Origin: an uncultured delta proteobacterium
GTDB taxonomy: Bacteria; Desulfobacterota; Desulfobacteria; Desulfobacterales; JAFDCJ01
DNA length: 64,000 nucleotides
NCBI GenBank assembly: GCA_963769935.1
Contig: CAVYNY010000010.1
Coordinates: 1-64,000, forward strand
Direction: 5' to 3'
The position numbers and the translations under genes were made by a program. Below, piece after piece: positions 20,196-37,575 of this stretch (the first letter of the stretch is position 1; every line of letters begins with the position of its first letter). A model generated the notes under the pieces. It saw nothing but the letters and a program-made list of their open reading frames with translations, did no database searches and had not been told where the DNA came from.

Positions 20196-20224
20196 TTGAA
20201 ACGGCTCGACCGCCGCTCTATGAT
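20196..20224 (+). promoter_or_regulatory. Sigma70-like promoter of the tct operon
   Basis: TTGAAA-17 bp-TATGAT. Confidence 0.5.
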
Positions 20225-20306
20225 GAGATATCACTATACGCTTCAAGTCTCTTTTTGCTTCAATGGAATTTCAAGCCTCAAACACCCCACAAAGGAGGTA
20301 GATACT

Positions 20307-21296
20307 ATGAAAAGGAAATTGACATGGTGGATTGGTTTGGTTGTATCGGTTTTGATGGTTGGGTCTGCGGGAGTGGTCCTTGCCAAGGATTGGAAGCCCC
20401 AGAGGCCCATTGAGATCATTGCTCCGGCGGGACCCGGCGGCGGCTGGGATCTCCTGGCCCGCACCATGCAAAAGGCGCTGACCCAAGAGAAGCTTGTGGA
20501 CCAGCCGATTATCGTCACCAACAAACCGGGCGGCGGCGGCGCTACGGGCTGGACCTATCTGAAGAACAAGGCGGGGCACGGTGAATACCTGGCAGCCAAC
20601 TCCCCGCTTATCCTCCAGAACCATCTTCTCGGAAAAAGTAAGCTGACCTTTAAAGACTTCACGCTGGTCGCCAACCTCATGGCCGAATGGGAAGTGATTG
20701 CGGTCAGGGCCGATGCACCCTGGCAGGACGGCAAATCATTCTTTGAGGCCCTCAAGAAAGACCCAGCCGGCATGCCTATCGGCGTAGGTCCTGCGCTTGG
20801 AAACGACGATCACATCCAGTTCCTGTCGCTTGCCAAGGCCTTCGGCGCAAACCCCAAAACCGTTAAGTTCGTCGTCTACCCCCGGACAGCCGCAGAGCAG
20901 ATACCCGCTTTGCTGGGAGGCCATATCAAGGCCATAACCATCAGCCTGGCGGAAACATTGGAGCAGGTCAAGGCCGGGAAGCTCCGTCTGCTGGGGGTCA
21001 GTTCGCCGGAACGGCTTGCCGATATCCCGGATATTGCCACCTGGAAAGAGCAGGGCGTTGATTTCGTTTATCCGCATTGGCGCGGCGTGATGGCCGCCCC
21101 CAAACTCTCGGCCGAGCAAAAGAAGTTCTGGTCGGACACCATCGCCAAGATGGTCGCGTCTCCATCCTGGAAAAATTCTCTTAAAACCCTGGACTGGGAT
21201 TCGTTCTACCAGCCCGCCGCCGAGTATGAGACTTTTCTGGAAAACCAGGACAAATTGATGAAGGAGACCCTCACGGATGTCGGCCTGATCAAGTAG
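20307..21296 (+). CDS. tctC: Tripartite tricarboxylate transporter substrate-binding protein
   Basis: Signal peptide; PAGPGGGWD, NKPGGGG, WRG; GGAGG RBS. Confidence 0.92.
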   Translation: MKRKLTWWIGLVVSVLMVGSAGVVLAKDWKPQRPIEIIAPAGPGGGWDLLARTMQKALTQEKLVDQPIIVTNKPGGGGATGWTYLKNKAGHGEYLAANSPLILQNHLLGKSKLTFKDFTLVANLMAEWEVIAVRADAPWQDGKSFFEALKKDPAGMPIGVGPALGNDDHIQFLSLAKAFGANPKTVKFVVYPRTAAEQIPALLGGHIKAITISLAETLEQVKAGKLRLLGVSSPERLADIPDIATWKEQGVDFVYPHWRGVMAAPKLSAEQKKFWSDTIAKMVASPSWKNSLKTLDWDSFYQPAAEYETFLENQDKLMKETLTDVGLIK

Positions 21297-21397
21297 GTTC
21301 CTGTTTGCCCTTTTTGTTTCGACCCGGTCACGGACGAGGAGAAAAGGCTCCGGCCTTGTTCTCCTCCGGTCAATTCTATAGACAGGGAGAATTGAAA

Positions 21398-21871
21398 ATG
21401 ACAAAGGATATGACCGCCGGAATTTTTTCAGTGGTGCTGGGGCTGGGTTATCTGGTTGCAGCCTTCAGGATACCTGTGTTTGACACAGGAGACGAAATCG
21501 GACCAAGGGCGTTTCCGTTCATGATTTCAGCGGTGGTGATCTGCTGCGGGCTGGCACTTATTCTAAAGGAACTCAAGAGCAGGAATCGCAAGCCGTTCTC
21601 GTGGGGGTTCACATCCGAACGAGGCATCTGGCTTCGAATCCTGATTACGATTGCAGCCGGCATCATTTACGGGCTCGTCCTGGATGGGCTCGGCTACGTC
21701 ATCGCGACCTTCTTTTTTATGATTGTGGTGGCCTCGATCGTCAACATTGGACGGCACCTGCAGAACATCCTCATTGCGGCGGCTTTTTCGATCGTCACAT
21801 TTGTCGCCTTCGAAGTTATCCTGAAACTCAGCCTGCCCAGGGGCATTCTCGGTGGAGTTCTGCCGTTCTAA
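21398..21871 (+). CDS. tctB: TTT small membrane subunit
   Basis: GPRAFP, LGYVIAT, LPRG; position in operon. Confidence 0.9.
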   Translation: MTKDMTAGIFSVVLGLGYLVAAFRIPVFDTGDEIGPRAFPFMISAVVICCGLALILKELKSRNRKPFSWGFTSERGIWLRILITIAAGIIYGLVLDGLGYVIATFFFMIVVASIVNIGRHLQNILIAAAFSIVTFVAFEVILKLSLPRGILGGVLPF

Positions 21872-21887
21872 GGGAGGACTGTGACTC

Positions 21888-23384
21888 ATGGATGCTATTT
21901 TTCATCACCTCCTGCAGGGACTCGCAGTAGCCCTGATGCCCCTGAATGTCCTTTGGATTATCATCGGGGGTCTGCTGGGTACGATCATTGGGATGCTGCC
22001 GGGTCTTGGTCCGGCCACGGGCGTGGCCATTCTTATCCCCATAACCTATGGTATGAACCCCGCCACGGCCCTGATAACCATGTGCGCCGTCTATTACGGT
22101 GCCATGTTCGGGGGCTCCCGGTCTTCCATCATGATAAACACGCCGGGAGATGCTTCGGCCATCGTCTCGTGCTTCGACGGGTACCCCATGACCAAAAACG
22201 GGCGAGCGGGAGAGGCGCTGGCCATATCCGCCATTGCATCTTTCATCGGCGGAATCGTGGGAATGATTTTTCTCATCTTTCTGACCGAACCAGTGGCGGC
22301 GATGGCGTTAAAATTCGGCCCGGCGGAGAAGTTTTCGCTCATGCTGTTTGCTCTGACCGCTACCATTACACTCTCCGAAGGCAGTCTTCTCAAAGGATTC
22401 ATAGCCATGGGGATCGGATTCATGGTTGCCACCATCGGCATCGACGGCCAGTCGGGAGCCATTCGATTCACTTTTGGTATAGAGGATTTGCAGGATGGCA
22501 TCGACTTTCTCGTGGCTATGATCGGTCTCTATGCCGTGGCCGAAGTGTTCAAAAACTATCGCACGATAAACGTCCAATATGAAGTTGATTCCAAAAGGAT
22601 CGGCAAGGTGTGGGTCAAGCGGGCTGAGTTCAAGAGATCGCTCATGCCCATGCTGCGAAGCGCTCCCATGGGTTTCCTGGTGGGAGTTTTGCCTGGCGCC
22701 GGCGGCACCATCGCCACCTTCCTGGCTTATGCCGTGGAGAAGTCCATCAGCAAAAGACCCGAGCAGTTCGGCAAGGGGGCCATCGAGGGGCTTGCTGCTC
22801 CCGAAGCGGCCAACAATGCCTGTTCCTGCGGCGCCCTGGTGCCCCTTCTAACGCTGGGAATACCCGGCTCGGGAACCACAGCGGTCATGCTCGGAGCGCT
22901 CATGATGCTCGGTGTTCGTCCCGGTCCGATCCTCTTTGATCAACACCCGGAAATAGCGTGGGGAGTCATCGCGTCGATGCTGGCCGGCAACATCATTTTG
23001 CTGCTGATCAACTTGCCGCTGGCAGTACCTTTGGTCCGGCTGCTGAAAACCCCCCAGCGCATCATGCTGCCGCTCATTCTCGGAATGGGGTTTATGGGGA
23101 CCTATTTTCTCAACTACAGTTCCTTCGATTTTATCCTCGTGTCCGTGTTCGCACTGGGAGGCTATATGCTCTCCAGGCTGGAGATTCCAATCCCGCCCCT
23201 GGTTCTGGCATTGATCCTCGGCGGTATGACAGAGCAGTCTTTCAGAAACGCCATGACGATTTCCAACGGCAGCCCTGCCATCTTCTTTCAGAAACCGATT
23301 TCCCTGACCCTTCTGATCATGGCCGCCATATCCCTGCTCTATGCCCTGCGAAAACACAGAAGAAAAGCTGAAACAAAGGCTTAG
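21888..23384 (+). CDS. tctA: TTT large permease
   Basis: GMLPGLGP, DGYPM, APEAANNA, LTLGIPGS. Confidence 0.95.
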   Translation: MDAIFHHLLQGLAVALMPLNVLWIIIGGLLGTIIGMLPGLGPATGVAILIPITYGMNPATALITMCAVYYGAMFGGSRSSIMINTPGDASAIVSCFDGYPMTKNGRAGEALAISAIASFIGGIVGMIFLIFLTEPVAAMALKFGPAEKFSLMLFALTATITLSEGSLLKGFIAMGIGFMVATIGIDGQSGAIRFTFGIEDLQDGIDFLVAMIGLYAVAEVFKNYRTINVQYEVDSKRIGKVWVKRAEFKRSLMPMLRSAPMGFLVGVLPGAGGTIATFLAYAVEKSISKRPEQFGKGAIEGLAAPEAANNACSCGALVPLLTLGIPGSGTTAVMLGALMMLGVRPGPILFDQHPEIAWGVIASMLAGNIILLLINLPLAVPLVRLLKTPQRIMLPLILGMGFMGTYFLNYSSFDFILVSVFALGGYMLSRLEIPIPPLVLALILGGMTEQSFRNAMTISNGSPAIFFQKPISLTLLIMAAISLLYALRKHRRKAETKA

Positions 23385-23496: not shown

Positions 23497-23766
23497 TGCG
23501 GTCCGCACATTCATAGAAAATATCTATAATAGCTGCAAAAGTGAACCGTATCAGAAAACGATAAGCAGCCTAAGCAAAAGATCGGTTAAGCTGGCCCCAA
23601 CCGCAATTTTAATTCGGATTTCAGCCTCAGCCACTATTGATTTTTAGCGGCATGAAAATGCTTCAAAAATAGCGGTTTAAAAATGCAGGTGCCTAGAGGT
23701 GGAGATACATTCTAATGGGTTAATGAGAATCTAACCAGCGCCGCTGTCAGTTCTGCAACAATAATT

Positions 23767-23841
23767 GGGGTGGCCGGAATCCATCGGAATCGGTGGCCGG
23801 CTTCGTCCGGAATGGGTGGCCGGAATCGAGCGGAACATGCA
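23767..23841. mobile_element. IS21-family terminal repeat remnant
   Basis: Three GGTGGCCGG...CGGAA repeats ending in TGCA. Confidence 0.7.
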
Positions 23842-23904
23842 ATGATTCTGAAAGCTTTGGGATTATACGTTTAACTCTCTTAAAGTTGCTTCGCTTAGTG
23901 AACT

Positions 23905-24276: not shown

Positions 24277-24788
24277 ATTCCTCCTTACATCTTGCATTAT
24301 ACTGAAAATTATAGCAAAAATTGATAAGAGGTCAACAAAATTTTGCAAATATTAAATTATATCAAGATGTTAATGTGTGACGGGAACATAATGCATGTCA
24401 GAATTTGGGTTGCCCCGGATAATGCATTTTATTAGTACTTTTGCGGAGTGTTCCTCACGTATCTCGACAGATGAGTTGAAATTGAACCGACTTCTTCCTT
24501 CGTTAGGACAATATTCCCATTATGGTATTTTCTCAACTTACTCAGCCCAATTCGTCAACTCGGTCGACCGCGTTCCCTGCTCTCTCCATCCGTGCGGAAA
24601 GCGCAGGTGTTCGGCACGACCGATTTCGAGTCGGCAAGCCATTGAAAATTTATTAAATCGTGTTAGAATCGGTAGCTGAGACAATGAACACAAGCTGAGA
24701 ATTGATAGTACGGATCGGGGCCAAACTGTTACAGATTAAGAACCCCTCGGGTAACGAGGTTAATATATTTTAAGGAAGGAGAAGTCGC

Positions 24789-25841
24789 ATGGCACTTCAA
24801 GCTGCCGCAATTGAGACGAAGGATGCCCTGGATGCCATAGAGCTTTTTTATCAGAAAGGTTGGACGGATGGGCTTCCGATTATCCCGCCGACAGAACGCC
24901 GCATCCAGGCCATGTTGGATACGGTGCACCTGCAACCGGATACGGTCATCGGCTCGATTCCGGAACGCAGCCGTGTCTTTACGGCCGAGGTTGTCGCCAT
25001 CAACGCGGTGATGGCCGGTTGTCTGCCGGAGTATTTTCCGGTGGTGGTGGCCGCAATTTCCGCTGTCAGCGACCCCGCCTTCGGGCTCCATGGACCTACC
25101 GCCACCACGCACGGCGCCGCCATCCTGATGATTGTAAACGGACCGATTACCGAAGCCATTGGCCTGAATTCAGGCCAAAATGTATTCGGACCCGGCAACC
25201 GGGCCAATGCGACCATTGGACGGACGCTGCGTCTGGTTTTAATCAATGCCGGAGGAAGTCACGAATTTGACCGCGCCACCCTCGGGCATCCCGGTAAATA
25301 TTCCTATTGCATTGCCGAGGATGAATCCACTGACTGGCAGCCGCTTCATGTTCAGAGGGGGTTTGAGCAATCCGTCAGCACGGTAACGGTTTTTGCGGGC
25401 GAAAGCCCCAACCAGGTGAACAACCACACGGCCTTGAAGGCCGAAAATATCCTTCTCACCCTGGCTGATCGGATGTCCGCTCTGGGCACGTTCAACATGG
25501 GCGGACACACGGAGATGGCCGTGATCATTTGCCCGGAGCATTATAACACGTTGAACCAGCAGGGGTGGGACAAAGCCAGGGTTCAGCAATTTCTTTACGA
25601 AAGGGCAGCCCGTCCGCTGGCCGATCTCAAAAAGGGTGGTTTCCTTGAAAAACCGATTGAAGATGGTGATATGAACCGTTTGGTACGGGCGGTACCGTCC
25701 CCCAACGATATCCTGCTGGTGGTGGCCGGGGGGATTGCCGGGCGTTTCTCGGCCTGTATCCCGGGATGGGCCAGTATGAAAGCCTGCCATTCGGTCACCC
25801 GGGCCCTGCGCGACGCCAGCTGCGGTACCTGAGGGTGGTAA
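24789..25841 (+). CDS. UGSC-associated protein; ends at TGA 25832 or reads through (Sec) to TAA 25841
   Basis: WTDGLPIIPPT, AINAVMAGC, GNRANATIGR; C-terminus SCGT-TGA-GW-TAA. Confidence 0.8.
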
Positions 25842-25899
25842 CAGCCAATCGTGAATTGGCGAAAAGAAAATCTTCCGGACAAAAAGGAGATCAGGTAAA

Positions 25900-26442
25900 A
25901 TGAATTTCGTCGTCTATAATCCGACCAGCGGGCCCACCGCTGGAAAAATGGGGCTGGCGCCCCGGATTGAAAACTTGCAAAATGGTGTATTGGGAGTGAT
26001 TGACAACGGTAAGACAAACTCGGATACGGTTTTGAATCGGATTGTCACTAAACTGGCCGAACGTTTTTCTCTGGAAGACGTTATCACCGTAAGAAAACAT
26101 TCCGTGTCCCATGCAATTAAAGATGATGCCGCCCGGATGCTGGCGCAGAAATGTAACTTTGTTCTGGCCGGAATTGGTGATTGAGGATCGTGCAGTTCGG
26201 GCAGTTTGCTCGACGGCATCGTCATGGAAAAATTGGGCGTACCCACCGTCGTAGTGATCACGGAGCCGTTTATAAGTTCCGCCAAAGCCATGGCTGTATC
26301 ACATGGGATGCCTGACTATCCGTTCGCTGTCATCCCGCATCCCATCGCTGCAACAGAGACCTCAAAATTGCACAGCTGGGCGGATAAGGTGGCTGATCAG
26401 ATCGTTTCGATCTGGTTGAAAGGGGAAACCGCTGAGCTTTAG
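25900..26442 (+). CDS. UGSC-family selenoprotein with TGA at 26182-26184
   Basis: ORFs 25900-26184 and 26206-26442 are in frame; junction reads GIGD-U-GSCSSGS; SECIS-like hairpin at 26197-26213. Confidence 0.9.
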
Positions 26443-31756: not shown

Positions 31757-34511
31757 ATGACGATTATGGATCTTCCTGCAACCTTTAATGCGGATTACAT
31801 TGACGCCCAATATAAGCTGTGGAAAACGGAACCGGAAAAAATTTCCCGGGAATGGCGCTTATTCTTTGAAGGTTTTGAACTGGCTGCCGCCGGAAAAATG
31901 CCCGCGGAAGAAACGGTCACCGGAGATCAGCTGGAGCGGCAATCGCGGGTGCAAACCCTTATCGACCGCTACCGGGACATCGGACATCTGATGGCCTGCC
32001 TTGATCCCCTGACAACGTGTCCGGCGGATCATCCGCTTTTAAATCTGGCGGCCTTTGATCTTACCCCCCAGGACCTGGACCGTGAATTTCTGGCCCGAAG
32101 TCCTGCCGAATCAGGCCGAATGCTGCTGCGTGAAATCATTCAGAACCTGAAAGAAACGTATTGCCGTTCCATCGGTGTGGAGTTCATGCACCTGCAGGAT
32201 CCGAATGAAAGACAATGGCTGCTGGATCGAATGGAGCCGGTGCGCAACCGGCCGCAAATGAGCGCTGCGGAAAAAAGGCACATATTGGAAAAACTTTATC
32301 AGGCCGCCCTGCTTGAACAGTTTCTCAATAAAAAATACATGGCGGTGACACGGTTTTCCCTGGAAGGCGCCGATGCAATCATTCCGGCCCTGTCCGGCCT
32401 GATCGAACACGTCACGCCCAAGGGATGCCGGGAAATTATCCTCGGTACGGCCCATCGTGGAAGGCTGAACATCCAGGCCCATATCCTGCACAAACCGTAC
32501 GAAGATATTTTTAGTGAATTTGAAAATTGCTATAACCCGGATGATCTGTTCGGCGCCGGTGACGTAAAATATCACAACGGATATCTGGCCGATATTGTCA
32601 CCGCCGAAGATCACAGCCTGCGAATTTTTCTGATGAACAATCCCAGCCATCTGGAGTTGGTGAATCCGGTGGTGGAGGGCTTTGTGCGGGCCCGGCAGGA
32701 CATGACTGCCGACCGGAATCGAAGCGGGGTGCTGGCATTGCTGGTGCATGGCGACGCCGCGTTTGCCGGTCAGGGCATCGTGGCTGAAACGCTGAACATG
32801 TCACAGCTTGAGGGCTATCGAACCGGCGGTACCGTTCACATCGTCATCAACAACCAGATCGGATACACCACCTTACCTGAAGACGCCCGCTCCACGCGAT
32901 ATTCGACCGATGTCGCCAAGATGCTCATGGTACCGATTTTTCATGTGCACGGCGAGGACCCGGAAGCCCTCCTTCACGTAGTTCGGCTCGCCGCGGACTA
33001 CCGGTGGGAATTCGGCAAAGACGTTGTCGTCGATGTGGTTTGCTACCGGCGCTACGGACACAACGAAGGCGATGAGCCGTATTTTACCCAGCCGTTGATG
33101 TACGAGCGAATTCGGCAGCGTCCGTCCCTGCACCAGGTTTACGCTGAAAAACTCCTCGAGGAGAAAATTATTCGACAAGACGACATCGAATCGCTGGACA
33201 CAGCCTTTAACACGGCATTGAACACGGCCTACGAAACGGTCCACAACAGCGAATGTCCTTTTCCGACGCCCCGCTTTTATCAAAACTGGGAAAAATTCCA
33301 CGGAAATTATTCCCATAATTCCGCCCATACCGGTGTCGCCAAAGAAAAGCTCATCTCTCTGATCGTGAAGCTGGGCGAGCTGCCCGACGGATTTGCTTTA
33401 AATTCGAAACTGGAGCGGCTGCTGAACAAACGTATCCAAACGGTTGAGCAGGGATACGGCATTGACTGGGCCTGCGCCGAAGCACTGGCCTTTGCCACTC
33501 TGTTGACGGAAGGGGTCCCCATTCGTCTAAGCGGCCAGGACAGCAGCCGGGGGACGTTCAGCCAGCGCCACAGCGTATTGGTGGATACCACGACCGGCAG
33601 CCGGTTTACACCCTTGAACAATCTGGCTGAAAACCAGGGGCCTTTTTATGTCTATGACAGCCTGTTATCAGAAATAGGGGTGCTTGGTTTTGAATACGGC
33701 TATTCGGTCGCCCAACCCGATGGGCTGGAGCTGTGGGAGGCTCAATTCGGAGATTTTGTCAACAACGCCCAGTCGATGGTTGATCTTTTTATTGCCAGCG
33801 GGGAAGCCAAGTGGCAGCGCCTGAGCGGTCTGGTGCTGCTGCTGCCCCATGGATTCGAGGGATTGGGTCCCGAACATTCCAGTGCCCGCCTGGAACGCTT
33901 TCTGCAGCTGTGTGCCGGAGACAATATCCAGGTTTGCCAGCCCACGACCCCGGCCCAGTATTTTCATCTGTTGCGCAGGCAGGTAAAAAGCAGTTATCGC
34001 AAACCGCTGATCATCCTGACGCCCAAAAGCCTGCTGCGCCATCCCATGGCGGTTTCCGGCCTTGAAGAATTTGACACCGGCGCTTTTGAAAGCGTACTGA
34101 ATGATGCCGCGTGATGTAGGGGATCCGAAAACCGTCCTGTTTTGCAGCGGCAAGCTCTATTATGAACTGGCAGCCCGGCGCAGGGAGCTGGACATCTCCA
34201 ACATCGCAATTATTCGAATTGAACAGTTTTATCCATTCCCCCAAAATCGAATAAAAAAATTAGCCAAACATTTTTCCGGTGCCAAAAAGTGGTGTTGGGT
34301 CCAGGAAGAACCTCAAAACATGGGCGGCTGGCAATTCATGCAGCCCCGCCTGGAAGAAATCTTGAAACACAACGTGACGTACATCGGCCGCGGGGCGTCT
34401 GCCAGCCCGGCCACCGGTTTTGCGGCAATCTTCAAGCAGCAGCAAAGCGAGATTCTCCGCAAGGCCGTAGGACCGCTGAGCGGAGTCAGGCAAGAGGCAG
34501 CGGTCAGCTAG
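31757..34511 (+). CDS. sucA: 2-oxoglutarate dehydrogenase E1, split by a +1 frameshift near 34105-34112 (pseudogene or sequence error)
   Basis: RFSLEG, AHRGRLN, HGDAAFAGQG, WEAQFGDF; C-terminal CSGK...WVQEEP in 34101-34511. Confidence 0.92.
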
Positions 34512-34778
34512 GTCCGTTGCCCGTGGTCGGTGGCTGTTGATCCGTTGGGAATCAACACGGCTTGCCGGATAATCTCGGTACTGGAGTGATGGAGGATTGG
34601 CGGGTTGAAAATAAGACATCAATTTTTCAGCCATTACTCCAACACTCCGGTACTGCAACCTGTCCCGTCGAAGTTACGCCGATGCGTGACGAAGGCGGAT
34701 ACTCTAAAACTAACTAAATTTGTCCTGTTTTAGCGACATATATCAAAAAAACAATCAACGGACATTGCAGGAGTCAAC

Positions 34779-36146
34779 ATGGTCATTGAAATTAGAGTCC
34801 CCAGTGTCGGAGAATCCGTTACGGAAGCGCTGCTGGCCCAGTGGTTTAAAAAAGACGGCGACCGGGTGCAAAAAGATGAGCCGCTTTTTGTGATCGAAAC
34901 CGATAAGGTCACACTGGAAGTCGTGGCCGAGGAAGACGGCGTCCTGACGATTAAAGTGCCGGAAGGCGAGACGGTGGCCATCGGAGCCCTGGTCGGCACC
35001 CTGGATACGGAGGCGGCTCCCAAAGCCGCGGCGGCCAAAGATGCCCCCCGAACCGAGGAAGCCAAAGCGGCAACGCCGGCAGCTGCCCGGGCGCCGGAAG
35101 AAAGAGCACCCAAACCGCCGCCGGAAAAAGAGCTTCAGGAACCTGGCGATACTATTCCACCACCGGCGGCACCGCAGTCCACACCCATCCGGCAGGAGCC
35201 CAAAGAGCCTGCGGCAACCGACCGCCAACTGGCACCGTCCGTGCGACGGCTGGTGGCGGAAAACAACCTGAATCCCTCTCAAATTCCGGGAACCGGCCCC
35301 CACGGCCGCATCACCAAAGGCGATGTTATTTTATACCTGGAAAGCCGCCGGGCGGCAGCGTCGGCCGGCAAAGGCGATCAGGCCATCGAACCTGCCGCCG
35401 GGCAACCCACAGCCGGTGTCCAGCCCGCCGCGGTTCTGCCGGACACGGAACTCGTCCAACGCAAGCCCATGAGCCCCATCCGCCGGCGCATCGCCGCCCG
35501 CCTCCTTGAAGCAAAACAAAACACGGCCATGCTTACGACATTTAATGAAATCGATATGGACAATGTCATGACCCTGCGCCGGCAGTATAAAGAATCATTT
35601 AAGCAGAAATACGGCGTTAATCTGGGCATGATGTCTTTTTTTATCAAAGCCAGCATCGAGGCGCTCAGGGAAATTTCTCGAATTAACGCCTTTATAGACG
35701 GCAAGGATTTTATCGAACATCACTACTACCATATTGGGGTGGCGGTGGGCTCCGAACGCGGCTTGGTGGTTCCGGTCATCCGGCATGCCGATCGGCTGAG
35801 TTTCGCCGGCCTGGAACAGGCGATCGTTGATTTTGTCAAAAAGATCAATGAAAATCGTCTTGAAATCTCCGATCTGGAAGGCGGTACGTTTACCATCAGC
35901 AACGGCGGCGTTTACGGCTCTTTGCTGAGCACTCCTATTTTGAACACACCCCAAAGCGCGATTCTGGGAATGCACAAAATCGAGAAAAGGCCGGTGGTCA
36001 TCGACGATCAAATCGTCATCCGTCCCATGATGTATGTGGCGTTGAGCTATGATCACCGTATCGTGGACGGCAGGGAAGCGGTCACGTTCCTCAAGCGGAT
36101 CAAGGAATGTGTGGAAAATCCGGAACGCATGTTAATGGAGATCTAA
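34779..36146 (+). CDS. sucB: Dihydrolipoamide succinyltransferase E2
   Basis: IETDKV lipoyl site; DHRIVDG. Confidence 0.95.
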
Positions 36147-36147
36147 A

Positions 36148-37575
36148 ATGGCCAAATCACAAAACTATGACGTCGTCATTATCGGCAGTGGTCCCGGCGG
36201 GTATGTGGCCGCAGTTCGCGCCGCTCAGCTCGGCCTGAAAGCTGCCTGTATTGAAAAAGAACCCCGCCTGGGAGGCGTCTGCCTGAATGTCGGGTGCATT
36301 CCCAGCAAAGCCCTGCTTGATTCCAGTGAATACTACCTGCTGGCCAAAGAGCAGTTCGCAGACCATGGGATCAAAATCGGCAAAGTCGGCCTGGATCTTC
36401 CCGTCATGATGGCCCGCAAGGAAAAAGTGGTTTATGAGCTGACCGAAAATGTCAGAAAGCTCCTTGAAGGCCATAAAATCGATATCATTCACGGTACGGC
36501 CAGACTGGCCGGGGCGGACCGGGTCGAAGTAGCGGTCCATTCCGACGGATCTGAAAAGGCAGCGGGGTTGAACCTGCAGGCCGGTGCCATCATTTTAGCG
36601 ACCGGCAGTGAACCGCTTGCGCTGCCGGATGCGGGGTTTGACGGCCGGCATATTGTCAGCTCACGCGAGGCCTTAACCTTTGATTCCGTGCCCAAACATC
36701 TCGGCATTGTCGGCGGCGGGTACATCGGACTGGAGTTGGGCTCGGTGTGGCTTCGACTGGGCGCCAAAGTAACGGTGATCGAAATGCTGCCAAATATCGC
36801 CACTGGCCTGGATGGACAGGTCGGTCGCAAGCTGCAGCGGGTGCTCAAGCGCCAGGGGATCGACTTTAAGTTGCAAACCAAAGTGACCGGTGCCGAAATC
36901 TCGGACAAATCCGTAAGGGTGAACCTGGAGACCAAAAAAGGGGCGGAAACATTAACCTGCCACCCCCTGTTAATCAGCGTCGGACGACGTCCCCTGACCC
37001 GGGGCCTGGGCCTGGACGAGGTGGGAGTTAAAACCGACCCCGACACCGGACACGTGCTGGTGGACGCGTCATATCGCACCAGCATCGATTCAATTTACGC
37101 CATCGGCGACCTGATTCCGGGACCGATGTTGGCCCACAAAGCATCGGCTGAAGGCATCGCCGCGGTGGAAGGCATCGCCGGCAAACCCGGTGAGGTTAAC
37201 TATGATGCCGTGCCGGCGGTCATTTATACCTGGCCCGAGGTTGCCAGCGTGGGGCTCACCGAGGAACAGGTCAAAGAGCGCGACATCCCCTATTGCACCG
37301 GCACCTACCCGTTTGCCGGCGCCGGGCGCGCCCGCTGCCTCGGCGAAACCGAAGGCTTTGTCAAAGTTATCGCCCACGGGAAAACCGATCGAGTTCTGGG
37401 GGTGCACATCATCGGTCCCCGGGCCGCCGATATGATCGCCGAGTGCGTTCTGGCCGTTGAGTTCGGCGCCAGCTCCGAGGACATCGCGCGCACCATCCAC
37501 GGTCATCCGACCTTTGCCGAAGCACTGCAGGAGGCGGCCATGGCGGTGCAGAAGTGCTCGATTTATGGGTCTTAA
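36148..37575 (+). CDS. lpdA: Dihydrolipoamide dehydrogenase E3
   Basis: GGVCLNVGCIPSK; HPTFAE. Confidence 0.95.
   Translation: MAKSQNYDVVIIGSGPGGYVAAVRAAQLGLKAACIEKEPRLGGVCLNVGCIPSKALLDSSEYYLLAKEQFADHGIKIGKVGLDLPVMMARKEKVVYELTENVRKLLEGHKIDIIHGTARLAGADRVEVAVHSDGSEKAAGLNLQAGAIILATGSEPLALPDAGFDGRHIVSSREALTFDSVPKHLGIVGGGYIGLELGSVWLRLGAKVTVIEMLPNIATGLDGQVGRKLQRVLKRQGIDFKLQTKVTGAEISDKSVRVNLETKKGAETLTCHPLLISVGRRPLTRGLGLDEVGVKTDPDTGHVLVDASYRTSIDSIYAIGDLIPGPMLAHKASAEGIAAVEGIAGKPGEVNYDAVPAVIYTWPEVASVGLTEEQVKERDIPYCTGTYPFAGAGRARCLGETEGFVKVIAHGKTDRVLGVHIIGPRAADMIAECVLAVEFGASSEDIARTIHGHPTFAEALQEAAMAVQKCSIYGS

Follow-up and report, generated by a model that had tools for sequence, protein, structure and literature searches.

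Does the first gene of a small selenoprotein locus in an uncultured delta proteobacterium of the order Desulfobacterales end at its apparent TGA stop codon, or is that codon read as selenocysteine (Sec) shortly before the real end of the protein? The question arises in a stretch of 64,000 nucleotides (positions 1 to 64,000 of the forward strand of contig CAVYNY010000010.1, GenBank assembly GCA_963769935.1; hereafter, the window), in which gene 1 (24789..25841, forward strand) is followed on the same strand by gene 2, a gene of the UGSC family. Gene 1 terminates in TGC GGT ACC TGA GGG TGG TAA, with the TGA at 25830-25832 and the TAA at 25839-25841; it codes for 347 amino acids if the TGA is a stop, and for 350 if it specifies Sec348. 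In the latter case, the sequence, its conservation, and the structure model delimit a C-terminal tail C345-G-T-U348-G-W-stop (25821..25841, forward strand). The hairpin GCCAAT-CGTGA-ATTGGC (25844..25860, forward strand; 6-bp stem, loop CGUGA) starts 11 nt past the TGA, lies entirely 3' of the TAA, and is the predicted bacterial Sec insertion sequence (SECIS) of gene 1, located in the intergenic 3' untranslated region (UTR). A first-pass annotation, made from the letters of the window, had reported this gene end and the position of the hairpin, and both were confirmed base for base. Based on the comparison of homologous loci, the gene 1 TGA is very probably decoded as Sec via the SECIS in the 3' UTR. 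The best overall explanation, to which we assign a probability of roughly 0.55, would be that Sec insertion creates a flexible Cys-x-x-Sec arm that re-reduces the active site of a predicted UGSC/gene 1 enzyme.

The hairpin satisfies the constraints on bacterial SECIS elements as quoted in a 2026 review (PMC13188914), i.e., a loop of 3-9 nt, a stem of 4-16 bp, a G at loop position 1-2, 16-37 nt to the loop, and a minimum free energy (MFE) of <= -7.5. The element in the window has a loop of 5 nt (CGUGA), a stem of 6 bp, and 17 nt between the UGA and the loop, and it is formed by RNAfold in the first 51 nt at -11.2 kcal/mol. Rfam returned one match, at chance level. The single locus is weak evidence because the same kind of hairpin is found after many long-frame ends genome-wide; it is conservation that lifts the gene 1 TGA and its hairpin beyond chance.

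Homologous loci were pooled at the DNA level, and the first stop after a fixed anchor was located in each. The close set, which counts the locus of the window among its members, comprised 29 distinct loci at >=55% identity, and the distant set 113 rows. Left out were three loci without usable 3' DNA (L058, L080, and L091), one that is open into UGSC (L126), a selA locus (L144), L147 (the same as L007), and the duplicates L090, L101, and L103. The first stop is a TGA, 34-36 codons past the anchor, in 27 of the 29 close loci, which belong to Desulfobacterota and Bacillales; the remaining two are a Cys form (L117) and a locus with neither a second Cys nor Sec (L150). The distant rows stop at TGA (59), TAA (27), or TAG (27), with the TGA positions scattered. 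A hairpin of at least 5 bp, starting 10-12 nt past the stop and with a G early in its loop, follows 23 of the 27 close TGA codons vs 2 of the 113 distant stops (TGA 1/59, TAA 0/27, TAG 1/27). The register of the hairpin is common to the lineages while its sequence differs, being GCCAAT-CGTG(A/T), GGCCC-AG(G/T)T, ACCAATC-GGT, or GCTCATTC-GG(T/C). Its stem covaries, by the test given below. As a positive control, such a hairpin was found 10-16 nt past 103 of 108 Sec codons of the UGSC type, the distance being 10-12 nt for 93 of these.

A second in-frame stop is found within four codons of the TGA in 21 of the 27 close loci, as compared to 5 of the 59 distant TGA rows. In the subclade with G-W after the TGA, this stop is fixed at codon +3 (TAA in 8 loci, TAG in 7, TGA in 1), and holding that place while switching between TAA, TAG, and TGA is as expected of a real stop. 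Homology past the Sec codon mostly extends over 1-3 residues; in 16 loci, a fixed stop comes directly after G-W, A-W, or G-F, and LAQ(L/V)G recurs past Sec in the group with CSGGxU tails. A Cys is present at most six residues before or at most four after Sec in 26 of the 27 close TGA loci. In L110 (1067-1111) and L111 (514-558), one additional base behind the TGA has displaced the second stop, and the tails of these two loci are possibly being lost. L114 holds a copy of gene 1 with an internal deletion, which keeps both the TGA-GGG-TGG-TAA end and the hairpin, without a UGSC match downstream.

Protein records were also compared at this column. Of the best 120 database homologues, 109 end 34-36 residues past the anchor with a tail signature (Cxx in 32, Cxxx in 1, Cxxxx in 41, GFT/GFI in 28, and TGG/TGS-x in 7), i.e., they stop at this column, and if the TGA is Sec, the records cut the tail off. 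The other 11 either end at the tail column without a signature (3) or differ in length (8), and three of these eight are Cys forms extending past the column (CSGDICAL, CSGDVCEI, and CSDGTCDV). A Cys aligns to the UGA column in L117/P0111, P0113, and P0114, which are nested in the tail clade; the alignment rests on the spacing from the upstream Cys, the tail being short. At the protein level, a cluster of 723 members, one of them named SAR324, ends in ATCDT. The closest named database matches of gene 1 are Desulfobacterales, and named Bacillales among its matches include Mesobacillus harenae, Bacillus mesophilus, and Alteribacillus iranensis. The first-pass annotation had proposed an operon encoding two selenoproteins, and this is supported by the conserved TGA, the conserved hairpin, and the Cys forms; the comparison of C-termini that it had suggested found the TGA kept, Cys forms present, and the hairpin conserved, and none of the contrary outcomes that it had named (homologues ending here in TAA or TAG, with neither CxxC forms nor a conserved hairpin, or a genome without Sec machinery).

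Its description of the tail as a CxxU motif holds for the form in the window and not as a conserved motif, since CxxU, CxxxU, CxxxxU, UxxC, and lone U all occur. The genus of the window has C-G-x-U-G-W, another family of Desulfobacterota has C-S-G-G-x-U-(S/T)-x-x-x-A-Q, and two Bacillales have C-T-G-x-G-U-Q-L. Two other Bacillales end in T-G-F-T-U-H-E-C and T-G-F-T-U-A-D-C, placing UxxC at the very C-terminus; this form is based on these two DNA loci and on 28 proteins ending in G-F-T/I at the column, the Bacillales sample being of four genomes. L112 ends in T-G-G-A-U-G-F, a lone U without Cys, and has a good hairpin. The comparison suggests a looser rule, of which CxxU would be one form: Sec is placed close to the C-terminal end, in most cases with a Cys before or after it.

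In a tree built without the tail residues, the Sec-type tails form one clade of 54 rows (SH-aLRT 93, Shimodaira-Hasegawa-like approximate likelihood ratio test), with the Cys forms nested beside the CSGGx-U group. The tree was obtained by a quick method with a midpoint root and has 159 rows: the query, 32 hand-selected proteins from the 120, and those loci whose alignment spans >=280 residues, from which 13 near-duplicates were removed. Tails with Cys are found beyond this clade as well (CxDGTC in L043 and L086, CIDC in L009, and CGCEAC in L133), which suggests repeated gain. Tail loss occurs too: in P0199 and P0206, LAQLG, which in L116 comes after the UGA, is joined straight to the upstream Cys. 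In P0199, P0206, P0192, and P0193, small deletions have taken out the Sec or the second Cys, so that downstream residues follow directly on the first Cys; the remaining members of their 90% clusters either stop at the tail column or continue through it. Because most of the family has no tail, the tail arm is an add-on of one clade.

The genome (8.0 Mb, 51% GC) contains tRNA-Sec, selB, and two copies of selD, and selA is present but frameshifted in the assembly. It is spread over three frames, and two further SelB-like GTPase matches on the same contig are in pieces and, from their position beside a tRNA cluster, probably EF-Tu; the broken selA and a probable EF-Tu gene lie at C22:678107-679262 and 721234-722131. 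In all five congeners tested, selA is a single stop-free match. Since the EF-Tu-like genes are also broken and the selA of the congeners is intact, the selA frameshift is read as probably a sequencing or assembly error. Of the other genomes, G457 has selA, as do four of five tested, G416 (90% complete) being the one without it, and selB was found in 10 of 10. Both selD copies (C20:157619-158545 and C7:116160-117080) have an in-frame TGA. Another likely selenoprotein of this genome is a gene with a PF07355 (GrdB/PrdB-like) match (contig C35, L152:1411-2217), which has an in-frame TGA in V-U-P-K-C. ARAGORN called a tRNA-Pyl (CTA) at C11:285724-285797, so that pyrrolysine may be in use alongside selenocysteine in this organism.

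Gene 2 (25900..26442, forward strand; 180 amino acids with U95-G-S-C98) can be assigned to the UGSC family of selenoproteins from its matches to PF24696 (E 3.8e-48) and NF041046 (137.6 bits vs a cut-off of 125), which are above both cut-offs. Its in-frame TGA (26182-26184) lies within G-D-U-G-S-C, and a predicted SECIS (TCGGGCA-GTT-TGCTCGA, 26197..26213, forward strand) starts 12 nt past that UGA. The pairing with gene 1 is recurrent: UGSC lies directly downstream, at 61-331 nt, in 31 of 32 close loci, L114 being the exception. In the wider set it turns up in 67 of 80 loci, and at least 10 loci have it as an in-frame fusion on the upstream side. Within the core of gene 1, Cys78 (codon 25020..25022, forward strand) is invariant in the 122 aligned members (122/122) and Cys174 (codon 25308..25310, forward strand) nearly so (116/122). 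In 21 loci without the tail (L074-L076, L082-L086, L095, L096, and L126-L141), mostly of one clade, an N-terminal domain with CxxC or CxxS is present, and seven of the eight tested match Pfam families of the thioredoxin clan, four of them above the cut-off. A majority of the distant homologues have neither the tail nor an N-terminal thioredoxin-like domain. The same 21 loci share a conserved P-G-C-(G/A/S) in the linker between the redoxin-like domain and the core, a further conserved Cys.

The AlphaFold model (AF2) of gene 1 has a core with a mean predicted local distance difference test score (pLDDT) of 95, and residues 346-350 score below 50, the low confidence of the tail being consistent with a flexible arm. 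No solved structure resembling the core model was found among the rows returned by the structure search. The UGSC model is a generic alpha/beta domain in which U95 opens a helix, and its best matches are flavodoxin-like or Rossmann-like chains. For neither model did the listing include chains with a thioredoxin fold, an absence that does not exclude such a fold. The ESM Atlas gave unnamed clusters only, plus one cluster bearing UGSC.

Considering these features, we propose a scheme in which the hairpin 11 nt downstream would serve as SECIS for the gene 1 UGA, and gene 1 and the neighboring UGSC protein would likely form one enzyme. Cys78 and Cys174 of the core, together with U95xxC98 of UGSC, would act jointly as its reductase site. 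The tail would take electrons from cellular thioredoxin or glutaredoxin, swing in, and reset the oxidized site, similar to the C-terminal cysteine pair of ribonucleotide reductase (RNR), and in other branches of the family, the fused N-terminal thioredoxin-like domain would take over this function. The electrons might pass from the tail to the UxxC site of UGSC, as the first-pass annotation had proposed, or to the conserved cysteines of the core. We regard the part of this scheme in which the core and UGSC constitute one thiol/selenol-dependent reductase, with the tail as an arm through which thioredoxin or glutaredoxin feeds in electrons, as an even bet. A broader picture is more tentative and, in our judgment, has somewhat less than even odds. 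In this picture, the pair would represent a very widespread, unnamed selenium-dependent reductase with a large-subunit fold new to the PDB. One clade (sulfate reducers, SAR324, and Bacillales) would have added a second Sec on a swinging arm, rebuilt as CxxU, CxxxxU, UxxC, lone U, or CxxxxC and interchangeable with a fused thioredoxin domain. The arm would then be a bacterial counterpart of that of RNR and thioredoxin reductase, in a two-Sec enzyme.

Several observations weigh against Sec decoding and in favor of an ordinary stop, with the TAA as a back-up stop and the hairpin as an unrelated intergenic element. TGA is a common end, closing 1,446 of the 3,662 long open frames of the genome (a set that includes non-coding frames) and 59 of the 113 distant homologues. 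Taken singly, the hairpin is not unusually stable: it is unexceptional relative to shuffled sequences (z -1.29, 18 of 200 as good), only its inner four pairs are retained in a longer fragment of 71 nt, and the same hairpin test is passed genome-wide after 55 of 1,446 TGA, 57 of 1,386 TAA, and 39 of 830 TAG ends. Four close TGA loci lack the hairpin as defined above, two through an extra base and a degenerate stem (L110 and L111), one with a stem of 4 bp (L113), and one with an 8-bp stem at 16 nt (L146). The identity cut and the hairpin offset were picked after the data were seen, and the loci are related, 16 of them belonging to the one G-W subclade. Kinship also inflates the covariation test, in which 16 hand-picked loci had 98.9% of the stem cells paired, double changes in three of the six pairs, and a score reached by 0 of 500 shuffles. 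The Sec machinery is not independent support for Sec in gene 1, because UGSC needs that machinery anyway, and a majority of the distant homologues of gene 1 have no tail. An ordinary stop is nevertheless improbable in view of a TGA kept in 27 of 29 loci from two phyla, hairpins that hold one register despite unrelated sequences, a Cys aligned to the TGA, and a hairpin that lacks a terminator-like U tract, the last point being also the one on which a terminator reading of this element was rejected. More improbable still is that the UGA and SECIS act as a selenium sensor, in which SelB-dependent readthrough would adjust how well the UGSC message downstream is translated or how stable it is, the extra residues being incidental. 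Such a role would suit the location of the hairpin between the genes, 39 nt ahead of the UGSC start, and the post-UGA codons, kept mostly at the nucleotide level (GGG in 14 of 16 and TGG in 15 of 16 loci). It fits poorly with the nested relatives that have Cys in place of the TGA, with the partner Cys kept before or after Sec in nearly all loci, and with a hairpin that is fixed in its distance to the UGA while its distance to the UGSC start varies over the range given above.

Two further readings accept Sec insertion and differ from the electron-entry arm in what the tail does. The tail might bind a metal or metalloid, or hand one to the active site, without shuttling electrons. The loose spacing and order of its residues (CxxU, CxxxxU, UxxC, and lone U) would suit a chelating arm, and C-terminal Cys-Cys or Cys-Sec pairs occur in metal-linked systems such as SaoC, as presented in a preprint (bioRxiv 10.1101/2022.07.06.499078). 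We nonetheless consider this unlikely, as no recurrent metal-handling genes were seen beside 21 loci of the tail clade (long open reading frames, inspected by eye) and the thioredoxin-like CxxC domains of other branches point to disulfide chemistry. Less likely again, and quite doubtful, is a GrdA-like role in which the tail selenol is the attacking nucleophile or product carrier and UGSC its reductant, with electrons passing from UGSC to the tail. The persistence of the lone-Sec tail with a good hairpin (L112) would agree with this, and the layout of two selenoproteins recalls GrdA and GrdB as outlined in PMC13188914. Because most of the family lacks the tail, a catalytic nucleophile is unlikely to reside there, and UGSC had no profile similarity to the PF07355 protein of the genome (probability 0.4, in a weak single-sequence test). 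Homology of UGSC to GrdB/PrdB, for which this same hhalign comparison was the test, is unsupported, and neither PF07355 nor PF04723 matched gene 1, gene 2, or any of 66 UGSC members at E<=0.1.

The first-pass annotation had inferred an uncharacterized two-component selenoenzyme. The tail of gene 1 was not found described in the literature consulted, but the family itself had been noted in 2008: Zhang and Gladyshev (PMC2398784, Fig S1A) showed a domain named Unknown_1, fused to UGSC and with the conserved-Cys region that holds Cys78. By eye, gene 1 matches the alignment in that figure (A-I/V-N-A/G-V-M-A-G-C-x-P-E-Y, with its conserved Cys) and can be assigned to the Unknown_1 family. The pertinent parts of that paper describe Unknown_1 as a Cys-containing fused domain, without Sec or a tail, whereas gene 1 has the Sec tail; they also suggest a thioredoxin-like fold for UGSC, whereas the UGSC model obtained here matches flavodoxin/Rossmann-like chains. 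The table of 119 families in the 2026 review (PMC13188914) includes UGSC and no family matching gene 1 by name or motif, and the gene 1 family is not described in the portions of PMC1976440 and PMC12013277 that were covered. Gene 1 had no Pfam match at E<=0.1, none of the 122 aligned members of its family matched NCBIfam (June 2026) at E<=0.001, and no curated model of Unknown_1 turned up. It is very likely that the family is missing from current selenoprotein lists (the 2026 review and NCBIfam) and is of a known general kind, that of the C-terminal Sec arm.

Other members of this kind are SaoC (NF040734), KCU-star (NF033934), and the CUAEP-tail radical SAM proteins (NF040546), which like gene 1 have Sec at or near the C-terminus and Cys variants. 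Their Cys and Sec are adjacent, while the gene 1 tail has two to four spacer residues or the reverse order, and the proteins are unrelated. RNR has a CxxxxC spacing, and mammalian thioredoxin reductase a C-terminal Cys-Sec arm. Neither is related to gene 1 in sequence or fold, and the analogy is one of mechanism only. Class I and II RNR and gene 1 share a C-terminal redox pair on a folded core, which for gene 1 is predicted here. The RNR cysteine pair is reduced by thioredoxin or glutaredoxin, as reported in PMC5704485. A terminal Sec followed by a hairpin 3' of the real stop has been described for SaoC in the preprint that also names the KCU-star family (bioRxiv 10.1101/2022.07.06.499078). 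GrdA, GrdB, and PrdB (PF04723 and PF07355), as summarized in PMC13188914, resemble the present pair in that several selenoproteins belong to a single reductase, in which the motifs CxxU and UxxC occur.

If gene 1 is a selenoprotein, a further family is added, one that escapes standard screens since the UGA is followed by only 1-3 residues and the called gene leaves out the SECIS. It would also offer a handle on UGSC, which has been without known function since 2007 and is among the most abundant marine selenoproteins, with 255 sequences in the 2008 Global Ocean Sampling (GOS) survey. A redox arm on its partner, and a thioredoxin fusion elsewhere, suggest an electron entry point, and the named Bacillales carriers are cultured material for testing.

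Gene 1 is preceded by a Shine-Dalgarno-like AAGGAAGGAG (24772..24781, forward strand) and gene 2 by a Shine-Dalgarno-like AGGAG (25885..25889, forward strand). A candidate sigma-70-like promoter (TTGAAA-16-TG-TAGAAT, 24642..24669, forward strand) is based on a consensus match, 10 of 12. Contigs from four sediment RNA runs of one study cover both genes and are not counted as evidence, since they might stem from DNA in the libraries; the contig cover of relatives in RNA libraries starts near the promoter candidate, a weak indication, and for one sediment RNA contig, which reaches from 25758 to 26129, none of the differences listed affects the TGA or the hairpin (a further 30 differences fall outside the listing). 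Upstream, a three-gene transporter-like operon (20196-23384), which by its motifs resembles a tripartite tricarboxylate transporter, was rejected as part of a wider operon, as the neighbors vary by eye between the loci of relatives. Short repeated GGTGGCCGG motifs at 23700-23850 resemble an insertion sequence end, and in a close relative (L088), a transposase-like open reading frame comes right after UGSC. Downstream, at 31757-37575, lies a 2-oxoglutarate dehydrogenase-like operon, the first gene of which is split around 34101-34114, perhaps by an assembly frameshift.
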